A stretch of 64,000 nucleotides of DNA from assembly GCA_016201505.1 (NCBI GenBank), contig JACQCQ010000013.1, positions 80,830 through 144,829 on the forward strand. Reading direction: 5' to 3'. The translations under genes were made by a program, and so were the position numbers. Shown one piece after another: positions 21,338 to 30,624 of the stretch (position 1 is its first letter; every line of letters begins with the position of its first letter). The notes under the pieces were generated by a model. That model was not told the DNA's origin. It did not search any database and saw only the letters and a list, made by a program, of their open reading frames with translations. The stretch is from Candidatus Sungiibacteriota bacterium. GTDB taxonomy: Bacteria > Patescibacteriota > Minisyncoccia > Sungbacterales > JACQCQ01.

Positions 21338-21946
21338 TCACTGACCGAACATCTCAAAATTGAAGTTTATCAAAATCAGATCATAGGCGGCAGTGCGCCG
21401 CAGAGCTTCAGTTGCAAGCTCCCGGATCTCATCTGTTCTCTCGCCTCGCCGGTAGGTCTTGGCGAGTTCGATGGCGCGGTCATACTGGTTTGGATGAGAA
21501 ACGGCGATACGCCGTCTTTTCGCCGCAGACCGCAGCATCGTCGGCCCGCCGATATCGGTCATGTCTATGACCTCGTCCTCGGTCACCCCATTACGATTCA
21601 TAACATCGTCGAGCGGCTTCAAACCGACCGAGACGAGATCGAAAAACGGCAGATCTAGACGCGCGAGGTCTGCCATGTGTTCAGGATTGTTCGCCTCCGC
21701 CAAGATGCCCGCGTGGATTTCTTTCGTCAGTGTGACTACTTGGCCGCCGAAGGTTGGAAACTCACCGAGGAAGAGCGCGCCGACATCAACTGATGGGACA
21801 TGGTAACTCTTGAAAAACTGATGCGTCCCCGGGGTGGCGTAAATGTTCCAGCCCATCTCCTCAAGCCTTTTGGCAAAACGGCCAAGCTCGGATGTTTTAT
21901 CAAAGCTGGAAATGAGCGCGTTATATAACCGCGAGCCCATGTACAT
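21338..21946 (-). CDS. Stand-alone IMP cyclohydrolase-like domain (PurH N-terminal MGS-like domain) without the AICAR transformylase domain.
   Basis: ALISSFDK, DIGGPTMLRSAAK, and TAAYD motifs align with the PurH N-terminal IMPCH domain. The protein ends after about 200 aa. Confidence 0.7.
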   Translation of the reverse strand: MYMGSRLYNALISSFDKTSELGRFAKRLEEMGWNIYATPGTHQFFKSYHVPSVDVGALFLGEFPTFGGQVVTLTKEIHAGILAEANNPEHMADLARLDLPFFDLVSVGLKPLDDVMNRNGVTEDEVIDMTDIGGPTMLRSAAKRRRIAVSHPNQYDRAIELAKTYRRGERTDEIRELATEALRRTAAYDLILINFNFEMFGQ

Positions 21947-22033
21947 GCGCGGCCTCCTTTTGCTTAGATGAGAACTGATTCTATTTTATCGCGCTTGAAG
22001 AAAAAAGCTACCTAAATATCCTATACTTACTGC

Positions 22034-24558: not shown

Positions 24559-24699
24559 AACCTCGTAGGCATCATACCAGACCTTGTGTCATATTTCAAA
24601 CACCGACCTCTGCAAAACTAAGACCATTCTGCCGTCGGGCGGTTTTCGTTTTATGAAAACCATGGGGGAGAAATTATGATACTCCGAGCTGTACTCATT

Positions 24700-24752
24700 T
24701 CCTGCGATCGCAGGAAATGAGTACAGCGAATCAAAAGCCGCGCGATGCGCGG
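24700..24752. terminator. Tandem hairpins: a 20+20-bp perfect palindrome followed by a GC hairpin with a T-run.
   Basis: GCTGTACTCATTTCCTGCGA|TCGCAGGAAATGAGTACAGC followed by AAAAGCCGCGCGATGCGCGGCTTTT. Confidence 0.5.
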
Positions 24753-25075
24753 CTTTTGTGTTGCTCAAAAAATTTCCCGCCTTCTCCGCCAGCTGGCAGA
24801 TACGGAAGGGCGCAGCAACTGTTTTATCCCTGAATGAATTCCAACTGTTCCGACTTTGGTCTTCCGAAGCTCCGTGAGGAGCGCAGGAGACCGCGCTGTA
24901 ATGTCCCCATTACAACGACTAGTCTCGGTGTATCGTGTTTCAGCCGTCCGAAGCTCTTGCGAGCGTAGGAGACTTCCGAGACCAAACACGTCTTTGGCTC
25001 GCCGTAGCTCCGTGAGGAGCGTAGACGGCTTTCATTCTCCAGGATGAGATAAGGAGGCGAGGCGCTTGCAGTACT

Positions 25076-26412
25076 TCTAAACGCACCTCGCATAAGGATC
25101 AGGCTTTCGCCTGCTAGATTTCGATCTCGGGCAATCTCCACGCCGCAGGCAAGGTGCACCTCGCCAAAAGCACGTCTCCGCTGCAGCGGAGCAAGACGAC
25201 CCGAGCTCTGTTATCCCGAACATCGGTACGATTTTTTTTTGCGATGCAGATACCGAGGTAGCGGAGGAAGCAGACGCCCAGTAGAGGATCGGGCGAAGGC
25301 ACTACCTACTAGCTAACCCGATCATACGTGATGTCCACCCCCGCGCTTCTCATCACCTTGTCCAGTGATACTCCGCAAGCGCCACGGGATTTCCTGCATC
25401 GCAAACTGAATTTCTATTTTTCCTTATCTCATCCTGGAGTTTTCGCCGCGCCAAAATTTTTATAAATAAAAACTTAGGCGGGCGTCCGACCTTCTAGGAT
25501 CACTGTTCAATCAGTTTGCTAGTTTTCTAGTTGACTAGTTAACTAGTAGGTCGCTAAGCGACCGGAACTGATGAACTGACAGATTCCTAAAAAGAATATG
25601 TTCCATCGACAGCTTCCGCTACCGATGCCTTGTTCATGTTCTCCCTATGTCGCCATAAGGCATGGACTATATCATCACCCTTTGTTGCAATGTCTTGATT
25701 TTTCTCGGATGCCAACTTCCGATAATCTTCAAGAAGTTTTCTTGAGATTTTTTCGAAATAAACATTCGGAAATAATCTGGATCTATGTGGAAACTTGGAT
25801 TATGGATTTTCCCCGATTGGATTCCAAAACTTATCAGCATTTGTTTAAGTTTCTCCAGTTTGATGCGATCATTCTGCACCAGTTGAATGTAAAACCTTGC
25901 GGATGGACTTCTTGGAATTCCTCCCTCGGCATCAAAGAATCCTCTTAAATACGCTATTTTTTCCTCAGCTGAATTTAACCGCTTAGGATCGAATTTTGTA
26001 TCTAAGAATTTTGCTCTTGTTTCCAATACATACACTTTACGATTTCTGCCTTCGCGATATATCCAGGAGGTATTATCCGTTAGCGCTAGGCAAGATTTTA
26101 GTACTGATAACCAATCAGTACCTAGCTGCGCAAACCGGTGTCTTTGGTTATACCGATTGAAGGTGCCATCGTGAAGCGCACCGAGTAAGTATGCTCGGCA
26201 TTCTGCAACAGAAGGGGCTTGGCGTGTAGTCTCTGAGGCGCCTCCGACGTTACGTCGGAGTTGCCTGCTGATTGTCTGCGCTTTTCGCATTATCACTTCT
26301 AGAACTATTTTAGCTCTATAAGTAGCAAAAAGATACTCAGGTTTTCCAGCATATAGCCAAGTTTTTATGTGAGAATTACTCCTCACAAGTCGCAACGGAC
26401 GCAGTCTGCGCC
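25076..26412 (-). mobile_element. About 1.3-kb intron-like insertion near the 16S 3' end (E. coli position about 1506-1520) encoding a LAGLIDADG homing endonuclease.
   Basis: 16S exon sequence (positions about 1400-1505) occupies 26396-26497 and the terminal about 22 nt occupy 25051-25072. The intervening 1.3 kb has no 16S similarity and carries the LAGLIDADG ORF. Confidence 0.6.
25667..26395 (-). CDS. Double-motif LAGLIDADG homing endonuclease (intron-encoded). The track ORF begins with a TTG; the start is uncertain.
   Basis: Two LAGLIDADG-like motifs: LLGALHDGTF and YLRGFFDAEGGI. Length 242 aa. Confidence 0.8.
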   Translation of the reverse strand: MRLVRSNSHIKTWLYAGKPEYLFATYRAKIVLEVIMRKAQTISRQLRRNVGGASETTRQAPSVAECRAYLLGALHDGTFNRYNQRHRFAQLGTDWLSVLKSCLALTDNTSWIYREGRNRKVYVLETRAKFLDTKFDPKRLNSAEEKIAYLRGFFDAEGGIPRSPSARFYIQLVQNDRIKLEKLKQMLISFGIQSGKIHNPSFHIDPDYFRMFISKKSQENFLKIIGSWHPRKIKTLQQRVMI

Positions 26413-26497
26413 TACGACTTCGTCTTTGTCACCGATCCTACCGTGGGCCACCATAAGTGGACTTCGGGTATTACCAGCTCCCCTGACGTGACGGGCG

Positions 26498-27232
26498 GTA
26501 TTAAGATCACTTCTGTGTCTTACACCACTGGGCGAACGGTTTTCCCGTACCCTAGCGGTTTCTTATATCGCTTTCGCGATATAGATTCGTCCCTTCCCGA
26601 GCACATATTTTTGGAGTCTATTGACGAAATTTATCAATAGGTATATAAATTGTATACGAGGAGGTGAAGGATTATGTTGGGTATCGCGGTTCCACCGATC
26701 CCTGCAAACGCGGGTGTCAGTAGCGATCCGGAAGGACTGCTCGCGCTCCTTCTTCTGATGTTCGTCGTTGTTCCGTCAATCATCGTCATTTTCGGCGGCG
26801 CGATCATGGCGAACGTCGAAGACTGAGATCAGCGGACGGCTTTCACCCCCCACAGCGGCCTCCAGGAGGTCGCTTTCAATTTCTCCAAAAATATGTGCTC
26901 GGTACTATGGATTCTGCTGACTTCTCAATAAGCATCAAGATAAAATTGCTTTTATCCTTTACCTTTCGGACTTAATAAGATCTCCTTCGGTCACCGAATA
27001 TACCATTCTCTCACATCTCGATACTCCGTATATAGCGTAAAATTTGTGCAGATGACTTCTCCATGTACTCGAAGGATCGTCGATCTACGCTACCTATTAG
27101 CGAGTATTCAAGCTATAAGACATATACTTTCGCCCTTCATCCTGAGGATCACTCCTCGAAGGACTGCGATTTCATTTCGCGACTTCTGCAAATCGTGGTG
27201 GGATTTAAACCCACTGGCATACTCGGCTGCAA
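26498..27232 (-). other. About 735-nt insertion in 16S at the conserved 1400 region, between GACGGGCGGT and TGTACAAG.
   Basis: Universal 1392 primer-site sequence is split: ...GACGGGCGGT at 26485-26494 and ...GTACAAAGCTCGAGAACGTATTCACC at 27235-27262. Confidence 0.6.
26674..26826 (+). CDS. Candidate 50-aa hydrophobic peptide with a strong Shine-Dalgarno, encoded inside the 16S insertion (antisense to the rRNA).
   Basis: AGGAGGTG is 5 nt upstream of the ATG. Translation MLGIAVPPIPANAGVSSDPEGLLALLLLMFVVVPSIIVIFGGAIMANVED has one predicted TM helix. Confidence 0.3.
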   Translation: MLGIAVPPIPANAGVSSDPEGLLALLLLMFVVVPSIIVIFGGAIMANVED

Positions 27233-27708
27233 AGCACCCGAGTACAAAGCTCGAGAACGTATTCACCGCGGCATAGCTGATCCGCGATTACTAGCGATTC
27301 CATCTTCAAGGAGTCGAGTTGCAGACTCCTATCTGAACTGGGGCGCACTTTGATGGGATTAGCTCCGCCTTGCGGCTTGGCAACCCATTGTATGCGCCAT
27401 TGTAGCACGTGTGTAGCCCAGGGTATCAGAGGGCCATGCTGACCTCGCGTCATCCCCTCCTTCCTCTCCCGAAAAGGAAGCAGTCTCTCCTGACACATAT
27501 AACAGAAGACAAGGGTTGCGTTCGTTAACCCACTTAAGGGAACAGTTCAAACCACGAACTGACGAGGGCCATGCAGCACCTGTGATTGCCGTCTTGTGAA
27601 CACACCGCGGTTTCTCGCGGTTTTTGCAATCATTTCAAACCCTGGTGAGGTTCCTCGGTTGTCATCGAATTGAACCACATGCTCCACCGCTTGTGCGAGC
27701 TCCCGTCT

Positions 27709-27838: not shown

Positions 27839-28920
27839 CTACAATTTTGTTGCGACAAAATTGGAATTTCTAAATCCGAATTTCTAATTTCTAAACAAAT
27901 CCGAAATCTCAAATTTCCAAATTGCGGACGAGACATTTCTGCTCGTCTCTCCGTATCGCTACGGAGATCGGACTGTATCATGACGGAAAGTATTACTGGC
28001 GCGGGTTTCGCTTTCGCTCACCCGCGCCGGGACTTCCGCCCTCGGCGTGCAGTCTCTGAGGGTTACGAAAGAGAGATCGGCGCTGTTTCTACATGCCGAT
28101 GGCCGAAACCGGGCCCGTCGAGGCTATCTCCGTAGCTTTCCTTGACGATGCGCTCGACGCGTACCACATTACCCATATCTTGAGCGATGGCGCGAGCTAC
28201 ATTGTCACCTTGAGCTTCGAACTCTACGACTGCCCAATATTTCATAGCTTCTCCTTTTCGTCCTTCCCTGCTGGTTGTCCGTTGACCGATCCGCGTTTAG
28301 CGGATACAGGTCGCACCGGATGCTTTTTTACCACTACTTTACATCGAACTTGCTGACTTCCTTCCGCATTCCTTCAAGGACCCTGCGAATCTCCGGCGAA
28401 TTGCCGTACTTCGCGAGGTACTTGTCGATCAGCTCGAGAAACCCGTTCTGCATGGCCTCGCGGGCCATTTGAGTGAACAAGCTCATTGTTTTTTTCCTTT
28501 CTGTGGTAGCACCGGATACACCGGATGTTCCAGCATATAGCTCCGCCGTCGCCTCACGGCTATGGCGGATCCCAACTTCACCATCATATTTTTCAATGGT
28601 GCGTCGGGACAAGTTTTCCAGGCAGTAGAAATTCGACTCGCTTCACAGCTGGCCGCAGAGAGGCCGGTCGAATTTCTACTGCCTGGTTTTTCCTTTTGAC
28701 GCGTTACTTCGCGTCCTAAGGGGACCATGCTCACGGTACCCCTACCGCCTCACTCTCGTTCGCTGTATCAACAGCGCCCTCAAGCGAGTCACATGTATGC
28801 ACAGAGAAATTTTTTCGAAACTCAAGGGAGGGATCCCGTCGTCGGAACGACAAATCCCTATGGGGAGAGTTGTAACATGCTCCTCCCTTGGTGATGAAAA
28901 AATTTCTCTGTGCAAAACAT
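27839..28920 (-). other. About 1.1-kb insertion in 16S after the 785-805 site. It contains small ORFs (28063..28245 and 28334..28612, minus strand) and a hairpin repeat element.
   Basis: 16S blocks on either side are contiguous in normal 16S (GGACTACTGGGGTATCTA at 27820-27838 and CCCATTCGCTCCCCACGCTTTCG at about 28925). The intervening sequence has no rRNA similarity. Confidence 0.55.
28613..28686. repeat. Hairpin element with 21-bp perfect terminal inverted repeats CCAGGCAGTAGAAATTCGAC...GTCGAATTTCTACTGCCTGG (family member 1).
   Basis: Perfect inverted repeat with a 28-nt interior. The terminal repeats match the element at 29205-29332. Confidence 0.6.
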
Positions 28921-29332: not shown

Positions 29333-29344
29333 GCTGGCACGAAA

Positions 29345-29995
29345 TTCTACCGCCAATTTGGACTATATCATCACCCCGATGTTCATCGGGGGTCCCGCGT
29401 GTAGTCTCTGAGGGCTCTCTGCTATAAGTTCGATAGACTAGTCTATCGAACTTATAGAAACAGGTTGCCTGCTGATTGTTTCGTTGCGCGTCTTTGCAGT
29501 TTGCAAAACATTTCCGCGGACACAACGAAGTGTTCCAGTCCCGCAAGCCTCCCCACCGCAATACACTGATGTATTGTAGTGGCATGACTCACAGGATTCC
29601 CGAATCCATCTTTTCTTACGGCCAATAGGGCCGCGGGATTGCGATTTGTAACTACTCCGCCTTCGCTAAAAGCTTCGGCGGACAAGTCGTTACACTCGCA
29701 GACAAATCGGGAACATATAGCGAGATTTTCTTATGACGTATTACTACGCCAACTTCGCACCAAGTTTTTCTAACTTCACGAAGTTTGCAGCTTCTTATTC
29801 ATCTGGTACGGTCAGTCGTGCCTCGCTCTAGCGAACCACTCTCAATTTTAAATTTCCAATTTCTAATTTTCAATGAATGTCCTAATGTCTCAATTTCCAA
29901 AGGTTTGGGGTATTGAATCATTAAGAATTGACTGAAAATTGCAAAATTGATCATTGCAAATTGTGTGCCTCACAAAAGTGAGACACGACTTCTTC
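29345..29995 (-). other. About 540 extra nt in the 16S region between E. coli positions about 400 and 515. It contains the operator type 2 palindrome and sequence blocks shared with the LAGLIDADG intron.
   Basis: Blocks GCGTGTAGTCTCTGAGGG (29396-29413) and GTTGCCTGCTGATTGT (29464-29479) also occur at 26222-26238 and 26261-26276 within the LAGLIDADG ORF region. Conserved 16S resumes near 29995 (CTTTACAGACCGAAGTCCTTCTTCCTGCACGCGGCG). Confidence 0.5.
29422..29457. promoter_or_regulatory. Operator type 2, copy d: CTATAAGTTCGATAGACT|AGTCTATCGAACTTATAG, 36-bp perfect palindrome, located inside the 16S insertion.
   Basis: Identical 36/36 to the copy at 35243-35278. Confidence 0.55.
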
Positions 29996-30237: not shown

Positions 30238-30296
30238 ACCCCGCCTAAATTTTTGAGCTTTTTCATACTTTCAAAAAGCTCAAAAATTTAGGCGGG
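30238..30296. repeat. 25-bp perfect-stem hairpin expansion in the 16S V1-V2 region.
   Basis: CCCCGCCTAAATTTTTGAGCTTTTT-catactttc-AAAAAGCTCAAAAATTTAGGCGGGG. Confidence 0.5.
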
Positions 30297-30624
30297 GACC
30301 ATTGAGTATTAGCCAATCTTTCGGCTGGTTATTCTCATCTCGGGGGTAGATTCCAAGGTATTACTGAACTCGTTCGCCGCTAACTGGCAAATTGCGCGTA
30401 GCTAATGGAAAATAGTATTGCTACTATAAGCCATCCGCCAATTGCTATAAGCCAATTCGCACGACTTGCATGCCCTATCCACGCCGCCAGCGTTCATCCT
30501 GGACCAGGATCAAATCCTCTAATAGATCAGTTAGTTTTTCAGTTTACTAGTTGCCTAGTTCACATATTGCTAACTGCCGAGAACAAGAGGAAGAAAGAAA
30601 CGAATTTTTAGAAAACTCGCGAAA

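Follow-up and report, generated by a model that had tools for sequence, protein, structure and literature searches.

Group-II-like insertions in the 16S rRNA genes of bacteria of the Candidate Phyla Radiation (CPR) are found at position 1400 only, where 39 of 53 encode a LAGLIDADG endonuclease and 14 contain no open reading frame (ORF) (class 16IS9; PMC11270868). In the bacterial rns-1396 IIC family the endonuclease is placed in domain IV, and ORF insertion into domain III has been documented as an alternative in group II introns (PMC13190283). Surveys of CPR rRNA insertions have counted only ORFs with known (Pfam) domains, almost all of which are homing endonucleases. Here we analyzed a stretch of 64,000 nucleotides (the window) of contig JACQCQ010000013.1 from Candidatus Sungiibacteriota bacterium, in whose 16S gene an intron of this kind carries no endonuclease gene and holds a 306-nt cassette with a 50-codon ORF on the strand opposite to the rRNA. 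An original prediction had regarded this ORF as a genuine small membrane protein, possibly a toxin-like one. The coding statistics, the signals at both ends of the ORF and its single-helix product favor such a protein, whereas the Shine-Dalgarno (SD) argument on which the prediction mainly relied, and conservation, do not.

Coding statistics of the antisense ORF

The ORF begins with ATG, ends with a TGA stop codon at 26824-26826 and encodes MLGIAVPPIPANAGVSSDPEGLLALLLLMFVVVPSIIVIFGGAIMANVED, in exact agreement with the peptide that had been predicted. A second, independent assembly (1661 nt, SRR12113410) is identical across the ORF region. The 50-residue peptide contains exactly one strongly hydrophobic stretch, with a Kyte-Doolittle value of 3.16 over 19 residues, as expected from the single transmembrane helix that had been proposed. 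The antisense placement was also borne out, with the 16S gene on the minus strand and the ORF on the plus strand, and the insertion that harbors it measures 740 nt instead of the estimated 735 nt or so.

The length of the ORF alone is unremarkable, as an ATG-initiated ORF of at least 45 codons arises in 32% of composition-matched random 266-mers. Its codon structure is far more unusual. The period-3 power over the ORF is 3.69, a value that was reached by none of 5000 shuffles (mean 0.74, sd 0.43) and that exceeds 92% of true-gene windows. This periodicity is confined to the ORF, since the cassette flanks score 0.55 and 1.11 and the remainder of the intron 0.33 and 0.45. The codon score of 0.23 per codon compares with a true-gene mean of 0.21 and was reached by 1.1% of 188 spurious ORFs, although it is partly driven by amino-acid composition and is thus not independent of the hydrophobicity of the product; none of the 188 spurious ORFs is as hydrophobic.

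The same statistics assign the coding strand. For the plus strand and the in-register minus strand the codon scores are 0.23 and 0.049, respectively, next to true-gene means of 0.218 and 0.049, and the asymmetry in the reverse orientation fits just 0.8% of true windows. Translation of the cassette on the sense strand of the rRNA gives a product more hydrophilic than all of 6000 true-gene windows. Sense-strand coding is therefore rejected on the asymmetry of the codon scores together with this extreme hydrophilicity. The combination of an ORF, an SD-like motif, a transmembrane-like stretch and period-3 signal occurred in none of 40,000 composition-matched random sequences, and a survey of the insertions in 131 16S genes, 62.6 kb in all, yielded no comparable ORF apart from antisense shadows of endonuclease genes. 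We conclude that the ORF is not a chance frame and that it has the statistics of a real coding sequence.

The host intron and its domain III cassette

The insertion is flanked by the exon sequences GUACUC/ACCGCCCG (27239 to 26500 on the minus strand). In 101 intron-less relatives the insertion point reads GTACTCACCGCCCGTC without interruption, from which the exon junction was set as GTACTC/ACCGCCCGTC. It falls within the 16S interval of about 1396-1400 that is characteristic of the CPR 16IS9 and rns-1396 introns. For comparison we assembled 62 related introns, two of them (L119 and L088) from an exon-anchored genome scan and 60 from a motif scan of metagenome loci. According to the Rfam model RF01998, six homologous introns that were tested score 36.7-55.4 bits, and the cassette lowers the score of the window intron. 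The domain V/VI model RF00029 gives 27.6 bits for the L119 homologue, below its gathering score of 40, and does not match the window copy at E ≤ 10. Two compensatory pair changes relative to L119 preserve pairing in the domain-V-like helix, and the domain VI stem is retained through compensatory changes in L189, the nearest contig. The intron terminates in AAU, an AY terminus accompanied by the bulged A of domain VI, while its 5' end is GGGUG and not GUGYG; the relatives start with GGAUG, GGGUC or GUGUC. In most relatives a single-motif LAGLIDADG gene on the sense strand occupies the hairpin immediately before domain V, that is domain IV, and the window intron has no such gene there. From these sequence features the insertion is an endonuclease-less member of the already known CPR 16IS9/rns-1396 kind, and it is predicted to be self-splicing.

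At its end RF01998 has a 3-bp stem and an internal loop that lead to a variable terminal hairpin, and the position of the cassette corresponds to this hairpin, which we take as domain III. The hairpin measures 10-67 nt in the 62 related introns, is a stem-loop in every one of the 38 distinct relatives, and reaches 306 nt in the window intron only. The native stem is revealed by the L154 hairpin, CCAAGCAC...GTGCTTGG, which matches the basal 8 bp of the 20-bp stem of the window; the true insert would therefore be about 290 nt long with 12-bp termini. The G+C content of the cassette is 17 points above that of the remainder of the intron, and no Rfam family matches either of its strands. The 20-bp helix closes the loop and thereby keeps the 266-nt interior outside the ribozyme core, in the manner usual for intron ORFs. 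In our interpretation the loop is a permissive one, and the helix insulates the cassette from the ribozyme.

On the plus strand this interior contains, in order, a -35/-10 look-alike, AGGAGGTG, ATG, 50 codons of strong periodicity and host-like usage, a stop codon, and a hairpin with a T-tract, and the promoter and terminator look-alikes together with the ORF fill the space between the repeat arms. The promoter look-alike lies 10 nt ahead of the SD-like motif; it was not listed by our promoter scan because the scan demanded T at position 6 of the -10 element. A canonical TTGACA-17-TATAGT promoter is present upstream of a window gene at 1242-1214. Intrinsic terminators are in use in this genome, which shows an enrichment of terminator-like sites (42 versus 27.8 expected). 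In minimum-free-energy folds the SD-like region is predicted to pair with CUUUCACC shortly after the stop codon, and this fold forms equally on the opposite strand. The fold of the cassette on the sense strand is far better than that of shuffled sequences (z = -6.9), and the 12 G.U pairs in the fold of each strand are uninformative as to the strand under selection. All features are collected in Table 1.

Table 1. Positions of the intron, the cassette and associated elements in the window.
Feature	Position	Strand	Remarks
16S 3' tail GGAACAUAUUCUUUUUAGG (GGAACAUAUUCUUUUU), without CCUCC anti-SD	25586..25604	-	sequence after helix 45
Group-II-like (IIC-like) intron, 740 nt, without homing-endonuclease gene	26500..27239	-	16S, between E. 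coli ~1397/1398; junctions from 101 intron-less relatives
Domain-VI-like hairpin with a bulged A (26507, position -8 relative to the 3' splice site)	26502..26522	-	read directly
Domain-V-like hairpin: CGC triad with G.U pair, 2-nt UC bulge, GAAA loop	26524..26559	-	read directly
Domain-IV-like hairpin, 23 nt, GAAA cap, without ORF	26562..26584	-	LAGLIDADG gene (170-200 aa) at this position in most relatives
Lineage-specific 306-nt cassette, expanded apical hairpin of domain III	26597..26902	.	GC ~57% vs ~40% for the intron
Left arm of perfect 20-bp inverted repeat, CCGAGCACATATTTTTGGAG	26597..26616	.	native domain III stem makes up its basal 8 bp
Sigma-70-like promoter look-alike, TTGACG-17 nt-TATAAA	26621..26649	+	10/12 matches, final T missing; read directly
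SD-like motif AGGAGGTG	26659..26666	+	7-nt gap (AAGGATT) to ATG
50-codon ORF, hydrophobic single-helix peptide	26674..26826	+	NCBI annotation: hypothetical protein HY220_04185
CTTTCACC, predicted partner of GGTGAAGG (26663-26670, overlapping the SD-like motif)	26840..26847	+	minimum-free-energy folds of the cassette and of a modelled 229-nt mRNA
Intrinsic-terminator look-alike, 9-bp G+C-rich hairpin followed by TTCAATTTCT	26854..26884	+	27 nt past the stop codon
Right arm of the same 20-bp inverted repeat, CTCCAAAAATATGTGCTCGG	26883..26902	.	pairs with the left arm
Rfam RF01998 group-II-D1D4-1 motif, domain II-III region	26884..26960	-	36.0 bits vs gathering score of 35; terminates at the cassette-bearing hairpin

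The 16S gene of the window, on the minus strand, is heavily interrupted elsewhere as well. A group I intron near 16S position ~1500 (25643-26423, minus strand; Rfam 59.5 bits) carries a LAGLIDADG_3 endonuclease gene with more than 1000 homologues, mainly in CPR rRNA genes, and an insertion of about 577 nt near position ~515 (29339-29787, minus strand) gives a sub-threshold group I match of 27.1 bits. An unclassified insertion of about 900 nt at 27924-28822, strongest at 28063-28612, shows a period-3 power of 4.03 at 28086, on par with that of the 50-codon ORF. Its sense-strand ORFs of 92 and 60 aa have no match in Pfam, NCBIfam or PHROGs, and a further intron gene, unrecognised or frameshifted, may be present there. 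Further long perfect inverted repeats in the 16S gene, all rich in A/T runs, measure 25 bp (30239-30297), 19 bp (28798-28914) and 18 bp (29422-29457); they resemble the cassette stem, and a role as processing stems or as expansion segments is conceivable. For about 1 kb downstream of the gene, at 24560-25590, the G+C content is 55-61%, with the motif GCTCCTCACGGAGCT(A/T)CGG repeated near 25020 and 24880 and with no ORF of at least 120 aa, tRNA, 23S or Rfam match. In other loci an unrelated second family of insertions of 435-852 nt lies one nucleotide downstream of the intron site, after GTACTCA (L081, L039, L015, L105, L078, L072 and L059). Its members share the start AAA(A/T)TAAA.GCGC, followed in most of them by a GGCAG motif.

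Loss of the anti-SD and the weighing of a proposed passenger gene

The prediction had drawn its main argument from a near-perfect SD in an SD-poor genome. The motif AGGAGGTG is present, with a spacer of 7 nt and not the 5 nt reported, and the genome is indeed poor in such motifs: an SD-like 4-mer precedes 7 of 44 window genes, against a background of 10%. The genome is SD-poor because the 3' tail of its 16S rRNA has lost the CCUCC anti-SD, and the sister contigs possess an identical tail. Across the loci we fetched, mostly from CPR, CCUCC is missing from 63 of 115 16S tails, many of which share GGAACAUAUCC; such a loss has been published for a subgroup of Parcubacteria (PMC9297842). No alternative SD matching the mutated tail emerged either, since the regions upstream of 29 ATG-start genes contain no enriched motif and are just A/T-rich. 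The ORF thus has a purine-rich motif 5-10 nt before its start codon while the complementary CCUCC is absent from the host 16S rRNA, and AGGAGGTG cannot act as a canonical SD in this host. Each strand of the 64 kb contains the motif a single time, approximately as often as expected by chance. The prediction had further cautioned that the string might belong to a conserved RNA structure of the intron; it lies outside that structure.

Elsewhere in the window the ATG of an ordinary minus-strand gene (21338-21946) is preceded at a distance of 6 nt by a perfect AGGAGG (21947-21960) in spite of the missing anti-SD, so such motifs occur in this genome without implying SD-led initiation. The motif of the cassette may be the legacy of an SD-using donor lineage, or may serve solely in RNA pairing. 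The former option is suggested by related introns (L119 and L088), which live in CPR lineages that keep GGAUCACCUCCUUU with its CCUCC. More generally, even a textbook SD does not indicate that a frame is translated where the ribosome has lost its anti-SD, and for orphan small ORFs codon periodicity is the more reliable signal.

We give approximately even odds (a probability of about 0.5) to the reading in which an orphan passenger mini-gene, located in the domain III loop of an endonuclease-less intron, has the ORF as its coding core. The ORF would be a real protein-coding gene, now or until recently, for a single-pass membrane peptide, and would have been acquired by insertion into the loop. 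That the cassette ORF is coding sequence by origin is probable; that it functions as a gene in this host today is a proposal we make, from its sequence, only tentatively. A transcript of the plus strand would run head-on into rRNA transcription and be fully complementary to an abundant intron RNA, so its expression would probably be low or conditional.

Several observations weigh against a passenger gene, besides the dependence of the codon score on amino-acid composition. The host has no anti-SD and its genes no SDs, the -10 element TATAAA lacks the conserved final T, and the position of the ORF is antisense within a locus whose transcription is among the heaviest in the cell. The peptide contains neither Lys nor Arg, which is unusual for a membrane peptide. 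A word-indexed search of 5.8 billion clustered proteins and a full phmmer search of 1.84 billion representatives returned only the peptide itself and one low-complexity match, so that the hunt for homologues proposed with the prediction leaves it an orphan. There were likewise no matches for the peptide in Pfam, NCBIfam, PHROGs or PADLOC, nor in viral contigs by back-translated and tblastn searches. By blastn and tblastn the 190 loci that were fetched yielded nothing similar to the cassette or the peptide, and viral contigs gave no match to the cassette. Both the frame and the whole cassette are missing from the 62 related introns; the prediction had named a lack of frame conservation in related insertions as grounds for its refutation, and by that standard it fails. 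As neither peptide nor cassette has a homologue anywhere, selection cannot be demonstrated.

What do the introns of sister organisms contribute? We sought closer relatives through the endonuclease of the neighbouring group I intron. The nearest contig, L189 (SRR22388329, ~85% identical), has the same intron and ends 52 nt into it. Sister contigs with an identical 16S tail vary at the site: L186 and L190 are intron-less, and another, different group-II-like intron is present 2 nt downstream of the site in L182, L183 and L192. The latter intron (598-1325 in L182) carries, after a canonical domain V, a sense-strand ORF at 1036-1269 for an orphan 77-aa two-helix peptide, which is also present in L183 and L191-L194. 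This ORF has a period-3 power of 2.52 (p = 0.001) and is closed by a stem of about 20 bp with two G.U pairs. It shows 0-1 changes among population variants whose ribozyme part differs by 4-7%, which hints that the ORF cassettes of such introns spread, or stay conserved, as units. The sister ORF, in another loop of a related intron, also counts in favor of a passenger gene. With the 50-codon ORF, the rRNA introns of this one clade hold two small hydrophobic ORFs that are unrelated to each other, which is suggestive and not yet a pattern. It would be a long shot to propose that membrane-peptide mini-genes form an undescribed class of passengers in endonuclease-less rRNA group II introns of a Sungbacteria-like clade, with the antisense one acting as a type-I-toxin-like switch in which the intron RNA of pre-16S serves as antitoxin and peptide production is tied to the shut-off of rRNA transcription.

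If the ORF is a working gene, rRNA introns of reduced CPR genomes can shelter cargo beyond endonucleases, and its placement antisense to the most transcribed RNA would be a simple coupling of expression to growth state. If it is merely a silent recent acquisition, domain III of a bacterial group II intron is documented as a landing site of foreign DNA.

Could the peptide be the toxin of a type-I-like module? The plus-strand mRNA would then encode a membrane-damaging peptide, the pre-16S intron RNA and head-on transcription would together act as the antitoxin, and production of the peptide would be confined to times when rRNA synthesis falls. In favor of the module are the small size, the hydrophobicity and the single helix of the peptide, an antisense arrangement that is obligatory, and the predicted pairing of the SD-like region with the sequence after the stop, which resembles the 5'-3' lock of type I toxin mRNAs. 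To our knowledge, however, known type I toxins carry basic residues, of which this peptide has none, and it matches no toxin or defence family in Pfam, NCBIfam or PADLOC. No promoter of a dedicated antisense small RNA is visible, sequestration of an SD is meaningless without an anti-SD, and the lock is a predicted fold that would form equally on the opposite strand. The module is also single-copy and unconserved, even though orphan status is typical of type I toxins (PMC8309996). A toxin-like role of the peptide is possible judging from its sequence, and the complete module appears unlikely to us.

Another explanation dispenses with the gene, in that the cassette would be an RNA-level expansion segment of domain III, and chance would account for the frame, the SD-like string and the flanking signals. 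The variable length of the domain III hairpin across the intron family is in line with it, as are the 25-, 19- and 18-bp perfect stems of the same 16S gene, the strong sense-strand fold of the cassette, the absence of conservation, homologues and anti-SD, and the ease with which an ORF of this length arises at random. An RNA helix, however, gives no cause for codon periodicity, and the period-3 signal is extreme and limited to the ORF. The codon usage and the strand asymmetry fit a plus-strand gene, the joint features are absent from the random sequences and from the 62.6 kb of other insertions, and the elevated G+C content sets the cassette apart from its intron. We therefore consider a purely RNA-level origin improbable.

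A miniature inverted-repeat transposable element (MITE) is rated lower again. Such an element would have inserted into the native hairpin at its AUAU loop, with terminal repeats of 9-12 bp (TTTTTGGAG...CTCCAAAAA) and a TA duplication, and the ORF would be cargo or incidental. The terminal inverted repeats are perfect over 20 bp, 12 bp of them beyond the native stem, and with the native stem deduced from L154 the junctions read CACA-TA-[element]-TA-TGTG, consistent with duplication of a TA target in a hairpin of 20 nt, CCGAGCAC-AUAU-GUGCUCGG. The G+C content of the cassette is foreign to the intron, and the near-identity of the ORF cassette in sister introns with 4-7% ribozyme divergence hints at recent spread. 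On the other hand, no further copy of the cassette or its termini was found in the window (up to 2 mismatches), in the 190 loci or in viral contigs. The TA/ATAT junction is palindromic, which makes a duplication indistinguishable from stem, and no source of transposase is known.

We find it hardly credible that the frame arose as the antisense shadow of an intron ORF, such as an old domain III endonuclease, that has decayed on the sense strand. LAGLIDADG shadows do yield hydrophobic, periodic ORFs in the relatives L143 and L182, and the in-register sense frame is open over the whole cassette save one stop, but when about 55 endonucleases of the family were compared with the insertion by tblastn they matched the domain V RNA region only, so that a LAGLIDADG remnant was rejected, Pfam finds nothing on the sense frames, and the hydrophilicity and score asymmetry of the sense translation are those given above.

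Comparison with described systems

The window intron shares with CPR 16IS9 (PMC11270868) and the rns-1396 IIC-LAGLIDADG introns of Thiomargarita (PMC13190283) the insertion site, the group-II-D1D4-1 motif, the domain V and VI look-alikes and the lack of a reverse transcriptase. It differs from them by the missing endonuclease, by the domain III cassette with its antisense orphan ORF, and by a 5' end of GGGUG in place of GUGYG. Among group II introns, the LAGLIDADG genes looped out of domain III or IV (PMC13190283) are comparable in that the ORF sits in a peripheral terminal loop, closed by a helix, with the ribozyme core still able to fold. Unlike those genes, the ORF of the window is on the opposite strand, has promoter- and terminator-like signals of its own, and its product is neither a nuclease nor a maturase.

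With type I toxin-antitoxin systems such as hok/sok, tisB/istR, fst and aapA/isoA (PMC8309996) the cassette has in common a hydrophobic single-helix peptide of at most 60 aa, a putative complementary antisense RNA, a predicted long-range pairing over the ribosome-binding region and a lineage-restricted distribution. The antisense RNA here would be an rRNA intron and not a dedicated small RNA, the peptide has no basic residues and no family match, and the host has no anti-SD that would make occlusion of an SD meaningful. A long perfect stem around an ORF-bearing insert of an rRNA gene is also found in the intervening sequences with a 23S_rRNA_IVP ORF, which RNase III excises at the stem (mentioned in PMC11270868). 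In the window, by contrast, the stem is inside an intron and not in mature rRNA, the peptide is unrelated to IVP, and the ORF is antisense.

Small peptides encoded in rRNA genes include mitochondrial humanin and MOTS-c as well as the pentapeptide mini-gene of E. coli 23S rRNA. The cassette resembles these in having a short ORF within an rRNA transcription unit, but theirs are located in mature rRNA, whereas that of the window lies in an intron, on the opposite strand and between signals of its own.

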